From NCBI GenBank assembly GCA_048941015.1, contig JBHLNZ010000083.1:1-12598 (forward strand): a stretch of DNA of 12,598 nucleotides, written 5' to 3'. Shown piece after piece: positions 2,692-12,163 of the stretch (positions within the stretch are counted from its first letter, which is position 1; each line of letters starts with the position of its first letter). A program made the translations under genes and the position numbers. The notes below the pieces were generated by a model that was not told the DNA's origin, ran no database searches, and saw only the letters and a list, made by a program, of their open reading frames with translations. Source of the stretch: Promethearchaeota archaeon. GTDB taxonomy: Archaea; Asgardarchaeota; Lokiarchaeia; Sigyniarchaeales; SOKP01.

Positions 2692-3099
2692 TTAGGTAAC
2701 TATTTTTTCTCCACAATTAGGACATGTTTTTACGAAGTTCGCTAACTCCATCCCACAATTAGGACATTTTCGAATAATAGGTTTACGATACTTTGAATTA
2801 AGCTTAACATAATCTACTCTTCTTATTCGGGGCTTATTAGATTTAATTTCTTTATATTGACTTGTAGAATCCTGATCTTTTTTATGTATAAATCTGGAGA
2901 AGAAAGATATCCCTTTTCTTCTAAATAAAACACCTAAAAAAAGTAAAAAGCAAAATATGAGAATTAAAATAGCAACGAACGGAGGACTTCCTAAGTCTAT
3001 TAATACCCAATAAAAAAAATAGAGCACCACACAAAAAATTATTAGTAGGATTATTCTAATTGTAAAATATTTCCGCAACGATTTTTTTTGACTTTGCAT
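2692..3099 (-). CDS. Small membrane protein: two N-terminal TM helices, basic linker, C-terminal zinc ribbon
   Basis: 135 aa with hydrophobic stretches IILLIIFCVVLYFFYWVLI and FVAILILIFCFLLFLGVLF, a Lys/Arg-rich linker, and CPNCG-x9-CPNCG at the C-terminus. Confidence 0.85.
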   Translation of the reverse strand: MQSQKKSLRKYFTIRIILLIIFCVVLYFFYWVLIDLGSPPFVAILILIFCFLLFLGVLFRRKGISFFSRFIHKKDQDSTSQYKEIKSNKPRIRRVDYVKLNSKYRKPIIRKCPNCGMELANFVKTCPNCGEKIVT

Positions 3100-3129: not shown

Positions 3130-5421
3130 TTATAGAAAATTTTTAGATATATAATTTCTTGCGTTTTCAAGATTCATTCTTGTTTCTTCAGTCTCAATCT
3201 CTTTCTCTATTTCAGATGTAATTATATCCTTTCTTGCTTCAAATTCAAAATTTATAGAAGAAAATTTTCCCTCTAATATAAAAGGTATAAATTCTGTACC
3301 ACGTCCCTCATAAAATTTGAAAAAGAATTCATAAAAATGCAATCTTAAGGCGTTTAAAAAGACTAATACTCCTTCTATGAGAATAACAACAATATTTCCA
3401 AAGATTAAACTGATTACCACAATAATTTGTACAAATATTCCTTCACCTGGAATAACTGAAACCATTGCCGTAATTGCAAGCATTAACGAAACATGCGCTA
3501 GTGCTAAAGCCATTAAACGAATATACGAAAGCACATTACTAGGGATCGATAATACAGTTTCAAAAGTATCCATAGTACCGTCTCCAATCAATTGTCCATA
3601 AGTAGATGCTCTTAAATATGAAATTCTTAATATTTTTCCTATTGGTTTAAAAAGAATCAATAAGATACCAGGTATTAATGGGAGAAGTATAGGGGGAAAA
3701 GGAGGGGCTAACCAAGCATTAAAATCAAAACGATAACGCATTACTAGATAAACGATTGCATCTAAGAAGAAAATTTTCGTTAGGGACTCTGTTATAGATA
3801 AGAATTTTCTTGATTGTTTCCAATAATTGATAAACTGGAGTATCCATCCTAAATTAATTTGAATGACTCCAACAAAAATCGTAAAAAAAAGAACTGTTAC
3901 TACATTTCCTAAAGGATTATATAATATAATTGAACCGACGAAAGGAATGGGGATGGGTATAGGATTTAAAGGATGCCCAAAAAATTCCTCTGTGCCAAAA
4001 AATTCTCCATAAAATAATCCTCCTAAAACAGCCCACCAACCACACCAAAAAATAATCCAAGAGAAATTATATATACCGCCTCCTCGTTTCCTAAAAATTA
4101 TTGCGCCAATAAGTCCAGAAATTATTAAAACTAAACCGTGTCCCATATCTCCGAACATTATTCCAAAGAATAAAGGAAAAGTAAAGAACAAAAAAGGAGT
4201 TGGATCAATTTCAGAATAAGAAGGAGTTCCATACATCTTTGTTAAAGTCTCAAAAGGTCTAAAGAGCCAATTATGAGTCATTTTTGTGGGAGTTTCTCTT
4301 TTCAAACTATCCCATTTTTCTACTTTTTCATCACTACTATCTTGAAGCTTATTATCTAGGTCGATTACTTTATTATCTATTTTATAGATGTGATCACGTT
4401 CTAGCTTTTTATCTTTTGTTAAAATTCCTTTTTTCCCTATATTTATTACCTCAATTGTGATATCAGTACCAAATTCGCTGATTAATTTTTGATAAGCATT
4501 TTTTTTCTGAGATTGAAGAATAAAAAACCTATAACTCAATCTATCTAATGATAATTCTTCAAATTGACTAGCTGCCCAATTAAACTCCTCTAAATTTGAA
4601 ATACTTTCATAAATTGCAGCAAATTTTAAAATATTATCTGATTTTATCCGCTTAATTTCTTTTTCATATTTTTCCAAATAGTTCTCTAGAAGTGCAATTT
4701 CATTATTAATTCGATCATGATTTATTCCATTGGAAGAAAGAAACTTTTTTAAGATTGGAACTTCTTCACCGTGAATAAGACTAATTTTTTCTCTTAATTT
4801 AGTTTCTTGATCTTTTGGATAAATTATGAAAAATGCAGTTCTATCAGTAGAGATATTTTGCACTTGTATAATACTTGGAAACTCATAAAAATCAAAAATC
4901 GATTTTAAGGTTCCAATATTTTTTGAAAAAGTCGTATAAGTTTTAAAATTAAAGTAAGTTAATTTTGTCAAGTTTTCTCGTGTTAAATTATATTTCTCAA
5001 GGAAGTCATAAGTTTTATCTATAATTTTAATCTTTTCTAATTCGATTTTTGTATCTGAAATATATTTATCTAATTCATTATACCGATTTGTATAGAAATT
5101 AATTTCTTCAATTAAGTAGTCTATTAACTCATGTGAATTTTTAGCGGTATATTTTTTTTTTTCTTTTTCTTTAACTTTTAAGAATTGAAAATCATTTTCT
5201 GTTATATCAAGTTTTTTAAATAAAATGTTTAAATTTAAGCTCAAGCTTTTCAGCTTTTCCTTATATACTTCTTCCGCTTCTGTAATTTGTGTAGATTGAT
5301 ATTCTTGTTTCGATTTAATATGTGCTCCTTTTATTTCTGCTAAAGTTGCTAAAAATATGTCTTTATATCTTCTGTCTAAACTTACCTTAAACAAGCACAT
5401 ATTATTACTTAATTTTACCAT
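3130..5421 (-). CDS. atpI: A/V-type ATP synthase subunit I (a), membrane stator and ion channel
   Basis: 763 aa with a soluble coiled-coil N-half, then PT...PFETLTKMYGTPSYSEIDPT, FFGIMFGDMGHGL, the essential Arg in SYIRLMALALAH (R635, codon 3517-3519), and LRLHFYEFFFKFYEGRG. Confidence 0.97.
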   Translation of the reverse strand: MVKLSNNMCLFKVSLDRRYKDIFLATLAEIKGAHIKSKQEYQSTQITEAEEVYKEKLKSLSLNLNILFKKLDITENDFQFLKVKEKEKKKYTAKNSHELIDYLIEEINFYTNRYNELDKYISDTKIELEKIKIIDKTYDFLEKYNLTRENLTKLTYFNFKTYTTFSKNIGTLKSIFDFYEFPSIIQVQNISTDRTAFFIIYPKDQETKLREKISLIHGEEVPILKKFLSSNGINHDRINNEIALLENYLEKYEKEIKRIKSDNILKFAAIYESISNLEEFNWAASQFEELSLDRLSYRFFILQSQKKNAYQKLISEFGTDITIEVINIGKKGILTKDKKLERDHIYKIDNKVIDLDNKLQDSSDEKVEKWDSLKRETPTKMTHNWLFRPFETLTKMYGTPSYSEIDPTPFLFFTFPLFFGIMFGDMGHGLVLIISGLIGAIIFRKRGGGIYNFSWIIFWCGWWAVLGGLFYGEFFGTEEFFGHPLNPIPIPIPFVGSIILYNPLGNVVTVLFFTIFVGVIQINLGWILQFINYWKQSRKFLSITESLTKIFFLDAIVYLVMRYRFDFNAWLAPPFPPILLPLIPGILLILFKPIGKILRISYLRASTYGQLIGDGTMDTFETVLSIPSNVLSYIRLMALALAHVSLMLAITAMVSVIPGEGIFVQIIVVISLIFGNIVVILIEGVLVFLNALRLHFYEFFFKFYEGRGTEFIPFILEGKFSSINFEFEARKDIITSEIEKEIETEETRMNLENARNYISKNFL

Positions 5422-5432
5422 TTATATAAGAC

Positions 5433-6086
5433 CTACATTAGTTGTTCTTCTTTAATTATATTTTTAGTTTTTTTTAATCTCACAAAATTTTCACGTTCGA
5501 GTTCTTCTAATATATCCTTAATGATTTTAGTCTCGGTTTGTAATTGCGGTTTGATTACGTTTTTTAGTCCATTAATTCTTCGATTTATTTTTTTAAAATT
5601 GAATAATAATTTTAACAAAATATCCTCTTTTTCGGCATAAAAAATCATAGCTTCAAAAAAATCTTTCAATATCTTTATCAACTCATCAAGATGATAAGAG
5701 GAATTTTCAAAAGAATAGGGTGGTAATTTCCTTTCTTGAATTAATCTATAATCAATATAAGGTAGTAAAATTCCAATATTTTTTCTATAAAGAATATCAA
5801 TGAAGGGTTTAAATTGTATTCTGCTTATTTTATTAATCATATTAATTTGCCATTTTCCCATCTCTCTATAGGTTTCGTTTAATTTTATAAGTGCATCAAA
5901 ATATATTTCATAAAATTCTTTTTGAGCTTTCTTATATTCTGGCCAAACGACTTTAATCTGCTGAATTAATTGTTCTTGTTTGTATTCCAAAAAGCTTTCG
6001 CCTCTCATTACAAAATTTAACTTTTTTGTTAAGTTAATTAAATTGGTTTTTGTAGGTTGTAATTTTCTAAAGCTTATTTTTATCAC
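5433..6086 (-). CDS. atpD: A/V-type ATP synthase subunit D (central rotor); start uncertain (GTG 6086 or ATA 6077)
   Basis: N-terminal QPTKTNLINL, KKINRRINGLKNVIKP (divergent form of the KTxRRVNALE motif) and LEELERENFVRLKKTK. Lies immediately after B. Confidence 0.93.
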   Translation of the reverse strand: MIKISFRKLQPTKTNLINLTKKLNFVMRGESFLEYKQEQLIQQIKVVWPEYKKAQKEFYEIYFDALIKLNETYREMGKWQINMINKISRIQFKPFIDILYRKNIGILLPYIDYRLIQERKLPPYSFENSSYHLDELIKILKDFFEAMIFYAEKEDILLKLLFNFKKINRRINGLKNVIKPQLQTETKIIKDILEELERENFVRLKKTKNIIKEEQLM

Positions 6087-7472
6087 CTATTTGGGAAAAT
6101 ATTTATTGATAAATTCTTGATGAATACGATATAATTGATTTTTTGGAATGTTTGATAGTACCTCCCATGCGATTTTAAAAGTCGTTTGAAAATCACGATT
6201 TTCGTCAAAACCTTGATTTAAAAACTTTTTTTCAAAATCATCTCCAAATTGTAATAAAGCTTTTTGTTCTAAATTTAAACTATCTTCACCAATGACAGAG
6301 ATTAAATCTCTAATTTCAAGGGCACTGGAATAAGACGCCAATAATTGAGAACTAATATCTGCATGGTCTTCCCTTGTCGTATTTTTACCAATCGCATCTT
6401 TCATCAATCTAGATATTGAAGCTAACACTTCAAATGGAGGATATATACCTTTTTTTTGTAAATTACGATTAAGTACTAATTGTCCTTCGGTTATGTATCC
6501 TGTTGTGTCCGGTATTGGATGCGAAATGTCATCATTGGGCATCGTTAAGACCGGGATTTGAGTGATAGATCCCTTTTTATCTTTTATAACTCCTGTTCTT
6601 TCATATATTGAAGCAAAATTTGAATAAAGATATCCAGGGTAGCCCTTTCTACTCGGAATCTCCTCTTTAGCGGAACTTAATTCTCTTAAAGCTTCTGCAT
6701 AATTAGACATATCAATTAAAACTACAAGTACATGCATTTCTTTTTCAAAAGCAAAAAATTCTGCTGTTGTTAATGCTACCTTCGGAATTATTAAACGTTC
6801 CATCACGGGATCATCTGCAAAGTTTATAAAAGAAATAATATTTTGAATATTTCCACTTTTTTGAAATTGGTTCATATAAAAGATTGCCTCATCTTGAATT
6901 ATTCCAATACCACAAAAGATCACGAGAAAAGGTTCTTCGGTTAAAACTCTAGCTTGCGTAACAATTTGGGCCGCTAATTTATTATGAGCTATTCCTTGAC
7001 CGCTAAAAATAGGCAATTTTTGTCCTCTTATCAGAGTAAATAAACCATCAATAGTAGAAATACCCGTTTGAATAACTTCTGAGGGATATTGTCTAGCATA
7101 TGGATTAATAGGAGCTCCATTTATATCTCTCTCTGCATCCGTTAATAGATCTAAATCTAATACTTTTTTAGTGTAAATATCTATAGGTTTTCCTATAGAA
7201 TTAAAAACACTCCCTAGCATATCTTTAGAAATTTTTATTTTAAATGGTTCTTCTGTAAAAATAATTTTAGAATTATCAGAAGACATTCCTCGAGTATCTT
7301 CAAAAACTTCAACAACAATAATTTCTTCATTTATTTTAACAACTTGTCCCATTCTCTTTGGTTGACCAATAGTATGAATTTCCACAATTTCTCCATATTG
7401 TACATCATGGTTATTTTCAACAAATACCAATGGACCGATAATTTGTCTTATATCTTTATAACTTACACTCAT
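6087..7472 (-). CDS. atpB: A/V-type ATP synthase subunit B (non-catalytic)
   Basis: [52 protein letters not shown] and arginine finger SISRLMK. ATG at 7472 is preferred over TTG at 7481. Confidence 0.98.
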
Positions 7473-7477
7473 ACTTA

Positions 7478-9313
7478 TCAAATGCTTCTATACGGTATTT
7501 TTAATTCGCTTATTTCTTCTAATAATTTTTTCTTTAGATCTTCAATTTTTTCGAATTTATCATTTGGAATAGAACTACTTATTCTTAAAATATCATTTAC
7601 AATATTAAGTTCTCTTATTTCTTCAATAATTATTCTTTGGTGTAATAATTCTTTTGCTTCTTTATAAAACAATAGAATCAATTTTATCTGTCCCATTAAC
7701 TTTTTCGCATTTGTATAATTATCTATTGAATCAAAGGCATTTTGTATTAAAAATCCTTCTTTAATTAGTTTAGCACAAAAAAGAATTAATTGTTGATCTT
7801 CTGGTAGGTTTTCTTCACCAATTAATTGAGTAATATTTCTTAAATTATTTTCAGTAGATAAAATTTCGTTTACTTGGTTTCTACATTCTTCCCAATTTAA
7901 TTCTAATTCTGGCCACCTAATATCTCTTTGATTCCACCATTGAGAAACATATTCAGGATAATTAGAATATGAATCTAGCCAATTTAGTGCGGGATAATGT
8001 TTTGCATAAGCTAATCTTGCATCTAAAGCCCAAAATGCTTGAACAAAGCGCTTAGTAGTAGCTGTTACTGGCTCACTAAAATCTCCTGAAGGAGGGGATA
8101 CTGATCCAATAATAGTTAAAGATCCTGCTTTTCTTTTTCTGAGATTATTACTGCCTAAAATATCAACGACACCTGCTCTTTCATAAAAGCTAGATAGTTT
8201 AGAGGGTAAATATGCTGGATATCCTTCTTCAGCAGGCATTTCTTCTAATAATCCAGATATTTCTCTCAATGATTCTGCCCATCTTGAAGTGCTATCAGCC
8301 ATTAACGCTACATCATATCCCATATCTCTATAATATTCTGCTATCGTTATTCCTGAGAATATGCTTGCTTCTCGAGCAGATACAGGCATATTCGAAGTAT
8401 TTGCTATTAGCACAACTCGTTCTAATAAGGGGCGTTGTGTTCTTGGATCAGTAAGTTTTGAAAATTCTTTTAAGCTATCTGCAATTTCATTTCCTCTTTC
8501 TCCACAGCCTACAAAAATAATGATATTAGCATCACACCATTTTGCAAGAGCTTGTTGAATCACAGTTTTACCAGTCCCAAAACCTCCTGGAACAGCAACA
8601 GTTCCACCCTTTGCTACAGGAAAAAGTAAATCTATTACACGGGTTCCCGTAATTAGAGGTTCAATCGGACTAGTCTTTTTTTTAAATGGTCTACTTCTGG
8701 TAACTGGCCATTTTTGTATCATATTAAATACTTTTTCTTTTCCATCATGTTTCAGTGTATAAATCTTGTCTATGATGGTATAATCTCCCTCTTCAACAAG
8801 AGAAGTTAAAATTCCAGATTCTTTTGGAGGTATCATTATATAATGCTTTATTAAAGGAGTTTCTTGAACAACCCCAACAACATCTCCTCCATGAAGGTTA
8901 GCATTTTTCTTTTGTAAAGGTGTAAAGTGCCATTTCTTTGTCCGCGATAGAGAAGGTAAATCTTTTCCTCTCTCTATGAAACTCTGATTATCCATTTCTG
9001 AAAAAAGTGTTTTTAATGGTCTTTGAATTCCATCAAATATACTTGAGAGTAATCCTGGAGCCAATTCCATAGATAATGGTTCTTTTAAATCAATTACACT
9101 TTCATAGAGCTTTAAATTGCTTGTATCTTCAAAAGATTGGACAATAATTCTATCTGTATAAATTTGAATAACTTCACCTAGAATATTCAAATTAGAAATC
9201 CTGATTAAATCATGAAGTTTAATATCATGTTCTAAACCTTTAACTTCGATTATAGAACCATTTATCATCGAGATATATCCAGTATGTTCCTGATTCATTT
9301 TAGATTTAATCAT
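7478..9313 (-). CDS. atpA: A/V-type ATP synthase catalytic subunit A (A1, canonical copy)
   Basis: Walker [11 protein letters not shown], intact [45 protein letters not shown] and FLIQNAF. Sits between E and B with no intein-sized insertion. Alternative ATG at 9298. Confidence 0.98.
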
Positions 9314-10031
9314 AATTTTTTAGATAGTTTTTAATTTCTTTTTTTTTCAAATTGACATAATTTTCAAATTCATCATTTGATTCTTTATATTTGATATCTG
9401 TAATTAATTTTGAAAATTCTATTTCAATATCAACATAATTACTTATTAATAAAGAATCTATGGTATAATCATAAGAGATATTAGCTTTAGTCATATTAAC
9501 TTTAAATCCTCCTATATACTCTTCATTTGCTTTTTCTATAATAACTGGATTTTTAAGTATGTTTTTAATTGATCCAATATTTTTATTAAAGTAATTGTAA
9601 TCTCTTGAATTAAAATATAAAATAATTTCACCTGGTTTATCTATATTTGTACTTATCTTTTGAATGTATTTTAATATAAAATCAACATAATTTTCATATC
9701 TCTCATTAATAGAGTCTTTAATATGGTTTTTGAGAGATATTTTTAAATTATTTATTAGTTCGATCTTTAAACTAAGTAATTTTTCTCTTGATTCCAAAAG
9801 AGTGGATGTTAAGAATGAATTTAAAATTTCATTATATTGCTCAATGAAATTTTCTTTTAATTTTTCTGATTGTTTGCGCATTCGATCTTCAAAATTTTTC
9901 CTAATTTCTGCTTTTTGAAATAATGTTGTTCTATTAATTTCTTTTATTTCTCGTTGAGCTTGATCAATCATAAAGAGCCCTAGAAGCCCAACTTTTTCCT
10001 TCAACTCTGCTTCTTCCGAAATAAATATCAC
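9306..10031 (-). CDS. atpE: A/V-type ATP synthase subunit E (peripheral stalk); start uncertain (GTG 10031 or ATT 10022)
   Basis: Charged helical N-half and C-terminal IGGFKV...ISYDYTIDSLL, matching the GG...[DN]xTxxxxL motif of subunit E. Overlaps the A start by 8 nt. Confidence 0.88.
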   Translation of the reverse strand: MIFISEEAELKEKVGLLGLFMIDQAQREIKEINRTTLFQKAEIRKNFEDRMRKQSEKLKENFIEQYNEILNSFLTSTLLESREKLLSLKIELINNLKISLKNHIKDSINERYENYVDFILKYIQKISTNIDKPGEIILYFNSRDYNYFNKNIGSIKNILKNPVIIEKANEEYIGGFKVNMTKANISYDYTIDSLLISNYVDIEIEFSKLITDIKYKESNDEFENYVNLKKKEIKNYLKNYD

Positions 10032-10036
10032 CCAAT

Positions 10037-10357
10037 TTAAGTTAAAATTTTCCCTAAAGATTTGCTAACTTTACTAATAAAAAGATCTTTTGTCTCATGA
10101 TTTGATGTGAAAAGATTTGGCAGATAAAAAATAAATGGTTTTCTTCTATTTAGTTTAAAATCTATTAGAGTTTCTATAATATTATCTGGTAAATCAAGAG
10201 CAATGATAATCAAATAAATTGCAGGATTTTCCACCAAATCATTAAATTGCTTCATAAAATCTTTATTATCATCAATTACTGTACCATTGATTCCTAATAA
10301 TCCCAGCAAAGTGATAATTTCATCAGTTCCAATAACATGTATCTGTTGTTCAGGCAT
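10037..10357 (-). CDS. atpF: A/V-type ATP synthase subunit F
   Basis: 106 aa with IHVIGTDEIITLLGLLGING (cf. IAVIGDxDTVxGFxLAGV), a YLIII strand and PFIFYLP. TAATG overlap with the upstream gene. Confidence 0.92.
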   Translation of the reverse strand: MPEQQIHVIGTDEIITLLGLLGINGTVIDDNKDFMKQFNDLVENPAIYLIIIALDLPDNIIETLIDFKLNRRKPFIFYLPNLFTSNHETKDLFISKVSKSLGKILT

Positions 10358-10668
10358 TAAAAATTATACACCATTTTATCTAAAATTATTTCAATTATCT
10401 TAGATTTTTTATTTAAGTAGCTATTTCTAATATTCTCTAATTCAATTTTATTTTTTTTCTTAAGAGTTGAAATATGATCTTCAATATCTTTTGAAAGTTC
10501 ATCGAGAACAATCTTTATATACTGGTCTTTTTTCTGTATTAATTCCTTCAACTGACTTTCTTCTTTTTTAATTAATTGTTCAATTTGGGTTGCCTTGTCT
10601 TTTTTTGCATTATCAATTAACTCTTTATAAATTCTTTCAACTTCTTCTAACCATTTAAAAAGTTCCAT
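10357..10668 (-). CDS. atpH: A/V-type ATP synthase subunit H (G-equivalent, peripheral stalk coiled coil)
   Basis: 103 aa, E/K-rich all-helical pattern (LEEVERIYKELIDNAKKDK...IIEIILDKMV). Size and operon position fit. GAGG RBS upstream. Confidence 0.75.
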   Translation of the reverse strand: MELFKWLEEVERIYKELIDNAKKDKATQIEQLIKKEESQLKELIQKKDQYIKIVLDELSKDIEDHISTLKKKNKIELENIRNSYLNKKSKIIEIILDKMVYNF

Positions 10669-10693: not shown

Positions 10694-11743
10694 TTATTTT
10701 AATTCTAAAATTGTAAATTTTTTATTTATAATATTTACTATATTTGGTATAATTTCTCTTTTAATTTCTTTTTCTTTCTTAATTATCAATTCTAATATCT
10801 TATAAATTGTTTGATATTCAATATCATCCATTTTCATTCTAAATTTTCTAAAATAATATTCTTGAAAAATTCTCTCAAGTTCCCATATCGGATGCTCAGA
10901 ATTAGAAAGATTGCCTATGTATTTTAATTCCACAATAGGCCTAAACAAATCATCGATAGTTAAAAAAAAATCATTTAAATTATTTTGGTTCAAGAGCAAA
11001 TCGATTTTATTTTCATCTAAAAATAAAAAGTAATTAACAATAAATTGACTCAATAATTGTTTATCGATATTATTTGTTATACCCCGATAAATTAAATTAA
11101 TATTATAAATTTCTGCTTTGTATCTATTAAATAAACTTATCATCTCTCTTTCTTTTACATTATATATCTTTTCTCTCTGAATCATGGTTATATAATATAA
11201 TTGATCTAAAAAAGCCTCAAGAACAAAAATTTCGTTTTTATTTTTAAAGTAAAGTAACCCTTCTCTAATTGCTTTATTATACTTTGTTGGCTTCATATAT
11301 AGTTGTATACCTTGTAATGTAGAAATTTCTATTAATTTATTTATAAATTCGGTATTTTCTAAATATTTTTCAATTAACATGTTAACATTTTTTAGCTTTT
11401 CTTCAGTATTCATCCCTATAATTAACCCTAGAATGATTTCTTTTATATTCATAATCTCATATTTCATTAAGTAATCTTTAAGAAAACGTCTCATATTTAA
11501 AGGTGAAATAAAAATTATTTTTCCAATAAGCTTAAAAAACACTATGTATAACGCTTTTTCAATTTCTTCAATTGAATATTTAGTAATTTTTAAATTAGGA
11601 TAATAAGGAGCTAAAACAGTTAAATAATCTTCAATATCTATTATATCTTTAAGTTTTTTTAAAGTATTATCATCAATTATTAATTGCTTCAAAAATCCTA
11701 TCCTTATAAAAGTGTATGCATAAGCTGGAACTGGTATACTCGT
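10694..11743 (-). CDS. atpC: A/V-type ATP synthase subunit C (d); extended upstream of the ORF-track TTG (11692), putative ACG start
   Basis: C-family motifs KYEIMNIKEII, LEAFLDQLYY and EIYNINLIYRG. The frame stays open upstream of 11692 and encodes SIPVPAYAYTFIRIGF-LKQLI, resembling the conserved YxYxxARxxxMxxxLL N-terminus. In-frame TAG at 11756-11758. Identity is secure; the exact start is not. Confidence 0.88.
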   Translation of the reverse strand, partial: TSIPVPAYAYTFIRIGFLKQLIIDDNTLKKLKDIIDIEDYLTVLAPYYPNLKITKYSIEEIEKALYIVFFKLIGKIIFISPLNMRRFLKDYLMKYEIMNIKEIILGLIIGMNTEEKLKNVNMLIEKYLENTEFINKLIEISTLQGIQLYMKPTKYNKAIREGLLYFKNKNEIFVLEAFLDQLYYITMIQREKIYNVKEREMISLFNRYKAEIYNINLIYRGITNNIDKQLLSQFIVNYFLFLDENKIDLLLNQNNLNDFFLTIDDLFRPIVELKYIGNLSNSEHPIWELERIFQEYYFRKFRMKMDDIEYQTIYKILELIIKKEKEIKREIIPNIVNIINKKFTILELK

Positions 11744-11791
11744 TGAAAGGTCACCCTACTCTAAGGTTAATTATTTATTAAAGGAAATAAT

Positions 11792-12163
11792 TTAAGGAGA
11801 GGGAATTTTAGTCCACAAAAGTATTGCTATAATCAACCCATAAACGGCTAAAGCTTCTGCTAATGCTACTACTAAGAATGCTTTAAAAAAAGATTCTTCT
11901 CTTTCAGTTAAAGCGGCAATTGCAGAAGTGCCCACAGTTTTTATTGCCATCCCACTTCCTAAAACAGCAAATCCAACAGCAATCGCTGACGCAATCCCTA
12001 ATAGTCCTGCAGTTGATGATTGATAGTATTGAAGATTTTCTGAAGTTTGAGCTACAGTTAAGGTGATGATTCCATTAGTCGATATAAAAACTATGAATAT
12101 CAAAAATATTTGGTAAAGGGCAATCAATAGATAAAATTTTTGTTTCCGATTCAACTCATTCAC
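11792..12163 (-). CDS. atpK: A/V-type ATP synthase proteolipid subunit K (c), single hairpin with an extra N-terminal hydrophobic segment
   Basis: Gly/Ala-rich helix GIASAIAVGFAVLGSGMAI, loop ALTEREESF, and second helix VALAEALAVYGLIIAILL with ion-binding E103 (codon 11855-11857). Start is GTG 12163 or TTG 12154. Confidence 0.95.
   Translation of the reverse strand: MNELNRKQKFYLLIALYQIFLIFIVFISTNGIITLTVAQTSENLQYYQSSTAGLLGIASAIAVGFAVLGSGMAIKTVGTSAIAALTEREESFFKAFLVVALAEALAVYGLIIAILLWTKIPSP

Follow-up and report, generated by a model that had tools for sequence, protein, structure and literature searches.

In E. coli, the infC gene, which encodes IF3, starts at an AUU led by a Shine-Dalgarno (SD) sequence, and NCBI translation table 11 lists ATT, ATC, ATA, and CTG as rare initiators, with ACG absent for bacteria and archaea. 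To our knowledge, no natural bacterial or archaeal gene has been reported to start at ACG. On the eukaryotic side, ACG initiation is known from AAV VP2 and from Sendai virus C', and in plant chloroplasts and mitochondria C-to-U RNA editing turns ACG start codons back into AUG. In E. coli, AUA, AUC, AUU, and CUG initiate at 1 to 2% of the AUG level and ACG at 0.1 to 1%, mostly with methionine (10.1101/063800), so that a core gene relying on ACG would be weakly initiated, except in a more permissive lineage. Yeast can use UUG, ACG, and AUU as starts at low levels (PMC6898956), and near-cognate initiation in eukaryotes has been reviewed (PMC5666671). Within titles and abstracts, our literature search found no report of an ACG start in archaea or of near-cognate use in Lokiarchaeia.

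The window analyzed here, i.e., the whole 12,598-nt stretch from a Lokiarchaeia metagenome-assembled genome (MAG; 3.59 Mb, 29.4% GC, 95% complete), carries an A/V-type ATPase operon whose subunit C gene appears to start at ACG (position 11743, minus strand). With the SD-led near-cognate starts of bacteria it shares an SD at normal spacing, a one-mismatch codon in the P site, conservation of that codon, and presumably weak initiation. It differs from them in that the codon is ACG, with the mismatch at the middle base and outside the table 11 initiators, and in that the machinery is of the archaeal/eukaryotic type (aIF1, aIF1A, and aIF2) and does not involve IF3. The likeness to eukaryotic ACG initiation would lie in reading by the initiator Met-tRNA, the eukaryote-type small subunit, and the factors e/aIF1, e/aIF1A, and e/aIF2. 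However, the start would be found here via an SD, without cap-dependent scanning, and the sequence around the codon (tca ACG agt), with T at -3 and A at +4, lacks the purine and the G that a favorable Kozak context has at these positions. Moreover, eukaryotic ACG starts mostly serve minor isoforms or uORFs, whereas this one is the sole start of a core gene. What the locus has in common with plant organelles is a conserved genomic ACG at the start of a conserved bioenergetic gene.

Sequence and product of the subunit C gene

On the minus strand, the 5′ end of the gene reads TAG (11758-11756) GGT GAC CTT TCA ACG (11743-11741) AGT ATA CCA GTT CCA GCT and continues TAT GCA TAC ACT TTT ATA AGG ATA GGA TTT TTG (11692-11690), exactly as the initial annotation, made from the sequence alone, had transcribed it. 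The stop-to-stop frame spans 10694-11755 (353 codons). Its earliest ATG, GTG, or TTG is TTG 11692, so the claim that no such codon separates the stop from this TTG holds. The in-frame stop lies 4 codons upstream of ACG 11743 and the next canonical start 17 codons downstream, within helix 1 of the protein; no canonical start is able to serve the gene. ACG 11743 is one base off AUG, and a GGGTGA had been pointed out 7 nt before it; this element is indeed present, its 7-nt spacer placing ACG 8 nt past the last G of GGTG. The 3′ end of the 16S rRNA from the same genome reads ...GGATCACCTCCT and is complementary to GGTGA, which makes the latter a genuine anti-SD complement, and the spacing of canonical SD-led starts in this genome peaks at 7 to 8 nt after GGTG.

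Translation from ACG gives the 349 residues that had been predicted, with (Met or Thr)-SIPVPAYAYTFIR as the predicted N-terminal tryptic peptide. The protein matches PF01992 (subunit C/AC39) with 77.6 bits (cut-off 29; E 1.5e-21) over profile positions 8-319 of 339. Since the match opens at profile position 8 exactly on the TTG codon, the family N-terminus has to be encoded upstream of TTG 11692. Tyr8, shared by all 15 sequences of an order-wide alignment, and the YxY motif also lie upstream, in agreement with the conserved N-terminus originally noticed there. An AlphaFold model of the protein read from ACG reached a pLDDT of 92.3 and placed helix 1 at residues 7-21. Searches of the PDB by sequence, with the protein itself and with a 15-sequence profile, gave no matches, so that fold comparison was needed; the 20 best Foldseek matches were exclusively V-ATPase d and Thermus C structures, with TM scores of 0.53-0.72 across 333 to 374 alignment columns. 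Thermus C (1R5Z/1V9M) and the yeast and human d subunits (8EAS_d and 6WLW_Q) are likewise PF01992 proteins with an all-helical fold of about 320 to 350 residues, and the position of the gene next to the proteolipid gene in an ATPase operon is shared with A/V-type ATPase subunit C/V-ATPase d. In contrast, identity to Thermus C and V-ATPase d is just 11 to 17%, and the non-canonical start codon sets the window's gene apart.

Genes for K, a G/H-like ORF, F, E, A, B, D, and I accompany subunit C on the same strand (Table 1). Termination-reinitiation coupling is described in PMC10666635; the 48-nt gap between K and C is too long for it, and translational coupling of subunit C to K was ruled out on this ground.

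Table 1. Coordinates of the ATPase operon, its start regions, and two further SD-led ACG codons of the genome (positions are those of the window unless a contig is named)
Feature	Position	Strand	Basis or remark
Proteolipid subunit K (c)	11792-12163	minus	PF00137, E 7.5e-15; stop 48 nt before ACG 11743
SD-like GGGTGA (core GGTGA 11755-11751)	11751..11756	minus	16S complementarity; overlaps in-frame stop TAG 11758-11756
ACG, proposed subunit C initiation codon	11741..11743	minus	ACG in 37/57 orthologues; ATG/TTG at aligned codon in others
ATA, third codon	11735..11737	minus	rejected as general start; not conserved; 14 nt after GGTG
TTG, first canonical start	11690..11692	minus	rejected as start; residue 18, within helix 1
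A/V-type ATPase subunit C (eukaryotic d) CDS	10694..11743	minus	349 codons + stop; PF01992, fold model
G/H-like ORF	10357-10668	minus	operon member
Subunit F	10037-10357	minus	operon member
Subunit E	9306-about 10022	minus	probable ATT start
Probable start of subunit E, ATT 10022	10020..10022	minus	6 nt after GGTG 10032-10029; orthologue conservation
Subunit A	7478-9313	minus	operon member
Subunit B	6087-7481	minus	operon member
Subunit D	5433-about 6077	minus	probable ATA start
Probable start of subunit D, ATA 6077	6075..6077	minus	6 nt after GGTG 6087-6084 of AGGTGAT
Subunit I	3130-5421	minus	operon member
135-aa ORF	2692-3099	minus	after subunit I
Second A-subunit-like gene	810-2645	minus	full length, 611 aa; all four A-subunit Pfam domains
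SD+ACG, surface protein of ~900 aa	G000:C123, plus-strand coordinate 69413 (L021 2914)	minus	orthologues TTG/ATG
SD+ACG, 194-aa protein	G000:C69, plus-strand coordinate 34255 (L022 856)	minus	orthologues ATG/ATT/ATA

The start codon in subunit C orthologues

The initial annotation had suggested aligning orthologous 5′ ends, and we did so for 57 subunit C loci, read in register with the conserved Tyr-x-Tyr motif. The loci came from 41 rows of 40 genus genomes (the window's own included), 8 named NCBI MAGs nested in the genus clade, and, for a further 13, other families of the order. The codon corresponding to 11743 is ACG, followed by AGT or AGC, in 37 of the 57, and ATG or TTG in several others, which supports the main claim of the annotation, namely initiation at ACG behind GGGTGA. 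ATG occupies exactly this codon in L005, L078, L075, and the two deepest members of the genus, L061 and L062, where GGTGA is followed after 7 nt by ATG AGC/AGT; L020 has TTG, and L003 has an ATG one codon past the aligned position. Outside the genus, the other families of the order start subunit C at ATG, with one exception (L063, genome G028). There, a stop inside GAGGTGATGA is followed by GAG ATT. This ATT looks like a start at the homologous site, in which case the near-cognate habit would reach beyond the genus.

In a maximum-likelihood tree, ACG occupies a single clade of 43 rows (37 ACG, 5 ATG, and 1 unclear) and the outgroups have ATG or TTG. Five changes of the start-codon label are needed, a number compatible with a single origin of ACG from an ancestral ATG followed by four or more reversions. 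Returns to ATG took place at unchanged SDs (L005 compared to L004, and L078 compared to L083/L086), so the constraint on ACG is not absolute. It is strong nonetheless: none of the rows has ACA, ACT, or ACC at the start-aligned position, and all 37 Thr-type rows carry ACG. This codon makes up 7.6% of the Thr codons of the window's genome, and it accounts for 7 of 81 codons in two conserved Thr columns of the same subunit C sequences; of 95 conserved columns, just one is restricted to a single codon. The constraint thus acts at the nucleotide level, as for a start and not for a Thr codon.

The flanking sequence was equally informative. GGTG lies 6 to 8 nt upstream of ACG in every row, yet it is spread over all three frames relative to ACG, which means that it works as RNA, i.e., as an SD, and not as codons, and leaves no place for a frameshifted GTG start. 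In L008, L054, and L060, an in-frame stop precedes ACG by 1 to 2 codons, so that translation cannot start further upstream in these loci. Between ACG and TTG, synonymous variation is seen at Pro (CCA/CCT/CCC/CCG), Tyr (TAT/TAC), and Ser codons; together with the invariant Tyr8, this indicates that the stretch is translated. An alternative start remains possible in L006, L007, L009, L017, L056, L057, and L059, which have an in-frame GTG or TTG in or near the SD. We consider the placement of the subunit C start at ACG about as secure as sequence comparison allows.

Near-cognate codons behind SD sequences in the operon and the genome

Two other genes of the operon probably start at near-cognate codons. 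For subunit E, the first canonical start, which the ORF finder selected (GTG 10031), falls inside the SD, and an ATT-Ser-Glu is conserved in most of the 27 orthologues, typically with a stop 1 to 2 codons ahead of it; in L004 and L005, the neighboring codon is ATG or TTG. The ORF-finder start of subunit D (GTG 6086) is likewise part of the SD. Of 30 rows compared, 15 have ATT ahead of Ser-Phe-Arg, 4 (the window's genome included) have ATA, and 4 have ATG, and the orthologous start codon usually follows GAGGTG plus a stop.

We then considered the whole genome. The test set consisted of stop-to-stop frames of at least 100 codons, in which codons preceding the first canonical start by 4 codons or more were scored for an SD 5-mer 5 to 9 nt upstream, with its register anchored to the 16S complement. 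Such a 5-mer stands before just 0.8% of leader codons, a background at which the SD-ACG arrangement of subunit C goes beyond chance. Enrichment behind an SD was found for ATT (2.7-fold, p 1e-7), ATC (4.0-fold, p 3e-5), ATA (2.1-fold, p 1e-3), CTG (5.9-fold, p 5e-3), and ACG (4.7-fold, p 0.03), the last with 3 of 82 leader codons and thus with weak statistics when taken alone. These five most enriched codons are all one base from ATG, and the sixth is AGG; codons other than near-cognates showed no enrichment in this test. The set resembles the one usable in eukaryotes (CUG, ACG, AUU, AUA, and AUC, with AAG and AGG poor). Pooled near-cognates gave an odds ratio of 3.8 (p 9e-18), and their enrichment tracked the canonical spacing profile, with its peak at 7 to 8 nt, and was absent at 0-3, 12-16, and 17-20 nt. 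In total, 86 SD-led near-cognate codons were observed against about 23 expected, alongside 266 SD-led canonical first starts (269 in the spacing analysis), so that about a fifth of SD-led starts would be near-cognate, a share far above that of E. coli; we estimate that some 60 SD-led genes of this genome are affected. An earlier count of codons after GGTG was discarded as confounded by in-frame GGT Gly codons, and a count with a loose SD definition gave p 0.08 for ACG; the register-anchored test is the informative one.

The three ACG matches of this test are the very cases for which orthologues were checked, i.e., subunit C and the genes on C123 and C69. The latter two emerged as further clean cases from a search for SD plus ACG at the heads of long frames, which yielded six candidates. 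In the surface protein gene on C123, AAGGTGA, a stop, and two codons precede the ACG, with which a signal sequence of the usual kind begins, first charged and then hydrophobic; in the closest orthologues, TTG and ATG take the place of this ACG. In the gene on C69, GGTGA (containing the stop) and two codons lead to the ACG; the 11 orthologues show ATG (4), ATT (5), or ATA (2) at this codon, several directly after a stop. Other SD-ACG candidates did not qualify: on C69 at 29922 and 33634, the ACG has a TTG or GTG immediately next to it, and the GTPase on C29 has a better start in its TTG. The GcvT-like candidate on C94 is ambiguous, with a GTG three codons upstream. Two probable SD-led CTG starts were also noticed, on C20 (plus strand, 0-based 48694) and on C87 (minus strand, 0-based 19456 on the reverse complement); one of them opens a SucC-like N-terminus (RLLEYESKELFAKF), with the first canonical start 105 codons downstream, and the other comes directly after a stop.

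Alternative readings, proposed mechanism, and start-codon stringency

The initial annotation had itself listed ways around an ACG start. A sequencing or assembly error, by which ATG was read as ACG or a 1-nt indel masks a GTG start at 11754, has to be considered for a single MAG without available reads, and when JGI metagenome contigs were scanned for the exact pattern, the start region of this species did not turn up a second time. However, 37 independently assembled genomes from different studies carry the same ACG, which removes the base error, and the indel is contradicted by the occurrence of GGTG in all three frames and by the GTG frame of the window itself, which meets TAA after 16 codons; we regard this explanation as practically negligible. 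A start further downstream, with ACG as an ordinary Thr codon or untranslated, would have the advantage of using either the sole canonical start in the N-terminal region (TTG 11692, for a truncated protein of 332 aa) or a near-cognate that the lineage uses elsewhere (ATA 11737). Neither codon withstood comparison. At TTG 11692, orthologues have TTA or CTT, no SD 5-mer precedes, and initiation there would cost Tyr8, the YxY motif, and 11 of the 15 residues of helix 1, so that the possibility reserved for it in the annotation is lost. The ATA 11737 start, also put forward there, fares no better, as many orthologues have GAG, GAA, ACA, GTT, GTC, or GCT instead and the codon lies 14 nt from GGTG, outside the 5- to 9-nt window and at a distance where enrichment is absent. 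Moreover, neither would explain why Thr-type rows are uniformly ACG or why the very same codon is ATG or TTG in six orthologues. Such a downstream start therefore seems quite unlikely.

Another idea is that the mRNA is edited from ACG to AUG by a C-to-U change before translation, as in plant organelles. Editing would account for the strict conservation, since no other Thr codon is a single C-to-U change away from AUG; CTG starts could likewise become UUG, and no RNA data exclude such a change. On the other hand, ATT, ATC, and ATA starts are far commoner in the same genome, with the same SD spacing and even in the same operon, and a C-to-U change cannot turn them into AUG as it does the plant ACG, so that editing would need a second mechanism beside it. 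In a further difference from plant organelles, no editing machinery was detected: the DYW-type deaminase domain PF14432 had no match in this 95%-complete genome, although the control genomes were silent too, so that this absence carries no weight. We know of no editing of mRNA start codons in archaea, and altogether we hold editing to be very improbable.

We therefore favor as likely an SD-guided ACG start at 11743, read by the ordinary initiator tRNA as one instance of start selection relaxed throughout the lineage. The sequence data show where the start lies, that it is conserved, how the SD is placed, and what pattern holds across the genome; the mechanism is a proposal. Pairing of GGTGA with the 16S 3′ end would place the 30S subunit so that ACG lies in the P site at the usual spacing of 7 to 8 nt, and initiator Met-tRNA (anticodon CAU) would pair with ACG despite the middle-base mismatch, yielding the 349-aa protein, presumably with Met as its first residue. 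In this Lokiarchaeia lineage, ATT, ATC, ATA, CTG, and ACG would all be usable as starts behind an SD, and the ACG of subunit C would have arisen once from an ancestral ATG and been retained in most descendants. This codon probably keeps translation at a low level: the rotor holds one copy of C beside the multi-copy K ring, and a weak start would fit stoichiometric tuning. Decoding by the initiator tRNA, the Met residue, and the tuning role are inferences, for which there are no protein, ribosome-profiling, or RNA data.

Scans with aragorn and Rfam found just 19 to 23 tRNAs in the genome and missed the initiator. By pattern search, one initiator tRNA(CAU) was recovered, which has A1:U72 and an anticodon stem containing three G-C pairs. 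Within the limits of an incomplete MAG tRNA set, no CGU counterpart of this initiator was found. The initiator gene (G000:C10, about 11602-11745, plus strand) has an intron in the T-arm region.

The sole aIF1/SUI1 gene (G000:C101; L090 1459-1800, minus strand) has no ATG, GTG, or TTG ahead of its zinc-knuckle motif but an ATT at L090 1791-1789. All 18 of the 18 genus orthologues show TGA, three codons, and ATT ahead of this motif; in another genus, two members have ATA at the corresponding place, and the remaining orthologues have TTG, GTG, or ATG. In Sulfolobus, aIF1 is reported to disfavor non-canonical starts, according to work cited in PMC6237735. The ATT resembles the autoregulated AUU of bacterial infC, and by this analogy it may reflect infC-like autoregulation of start-codon stringency, which could keep stringency at a level that lets near-cognate starts work.

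A core bioenergetic gene that has no workable start other than ACG has thus kept this codon across dozens of species. Gene finders restricted to ATG, GTG, and TTG make subunit C 17 residues too short and place the starts of subunits E and D inside their own ribosome-binding sites; missed near-cognate starts of this kind would lead to systematic N-terminal errors in the Asgard proteomes used for studies of eukaryogenesis. The eukaryote-type initiation apparatus appears to accept the near-cognate codons of eukaryotes, but guided by an SD, and the evolution of start-codon stringency (aIF1/eIF1) becomes testable in the lineage nearest to eukaryotes. A wider reading can be offered only tentatively, and we do not count it as probable. 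It holds that a eukaryote-like near-cognate set (ACG, CUG, AUU, AUA, and AUC) provides the sole starts of core genes, that the subunit C ACG has been under selection through the whole history of the 40-species clade because it sets stoichiometry, and that stringency is set by aIF1 from its conserved AUU, with feedback as in IF3/eIF1. Were this true, near-cognate initiation and its autoregulation would be older than eukaryotes.

With the second A-subunit-like gene of the window, another ATPase cluster may begin. One genome of the comparison, G042, holds two diverged subunit C genes with ATG starts (L075 and L089; 64% and 46% identity to that of the window), which reflect either a second operon or bin contamination.
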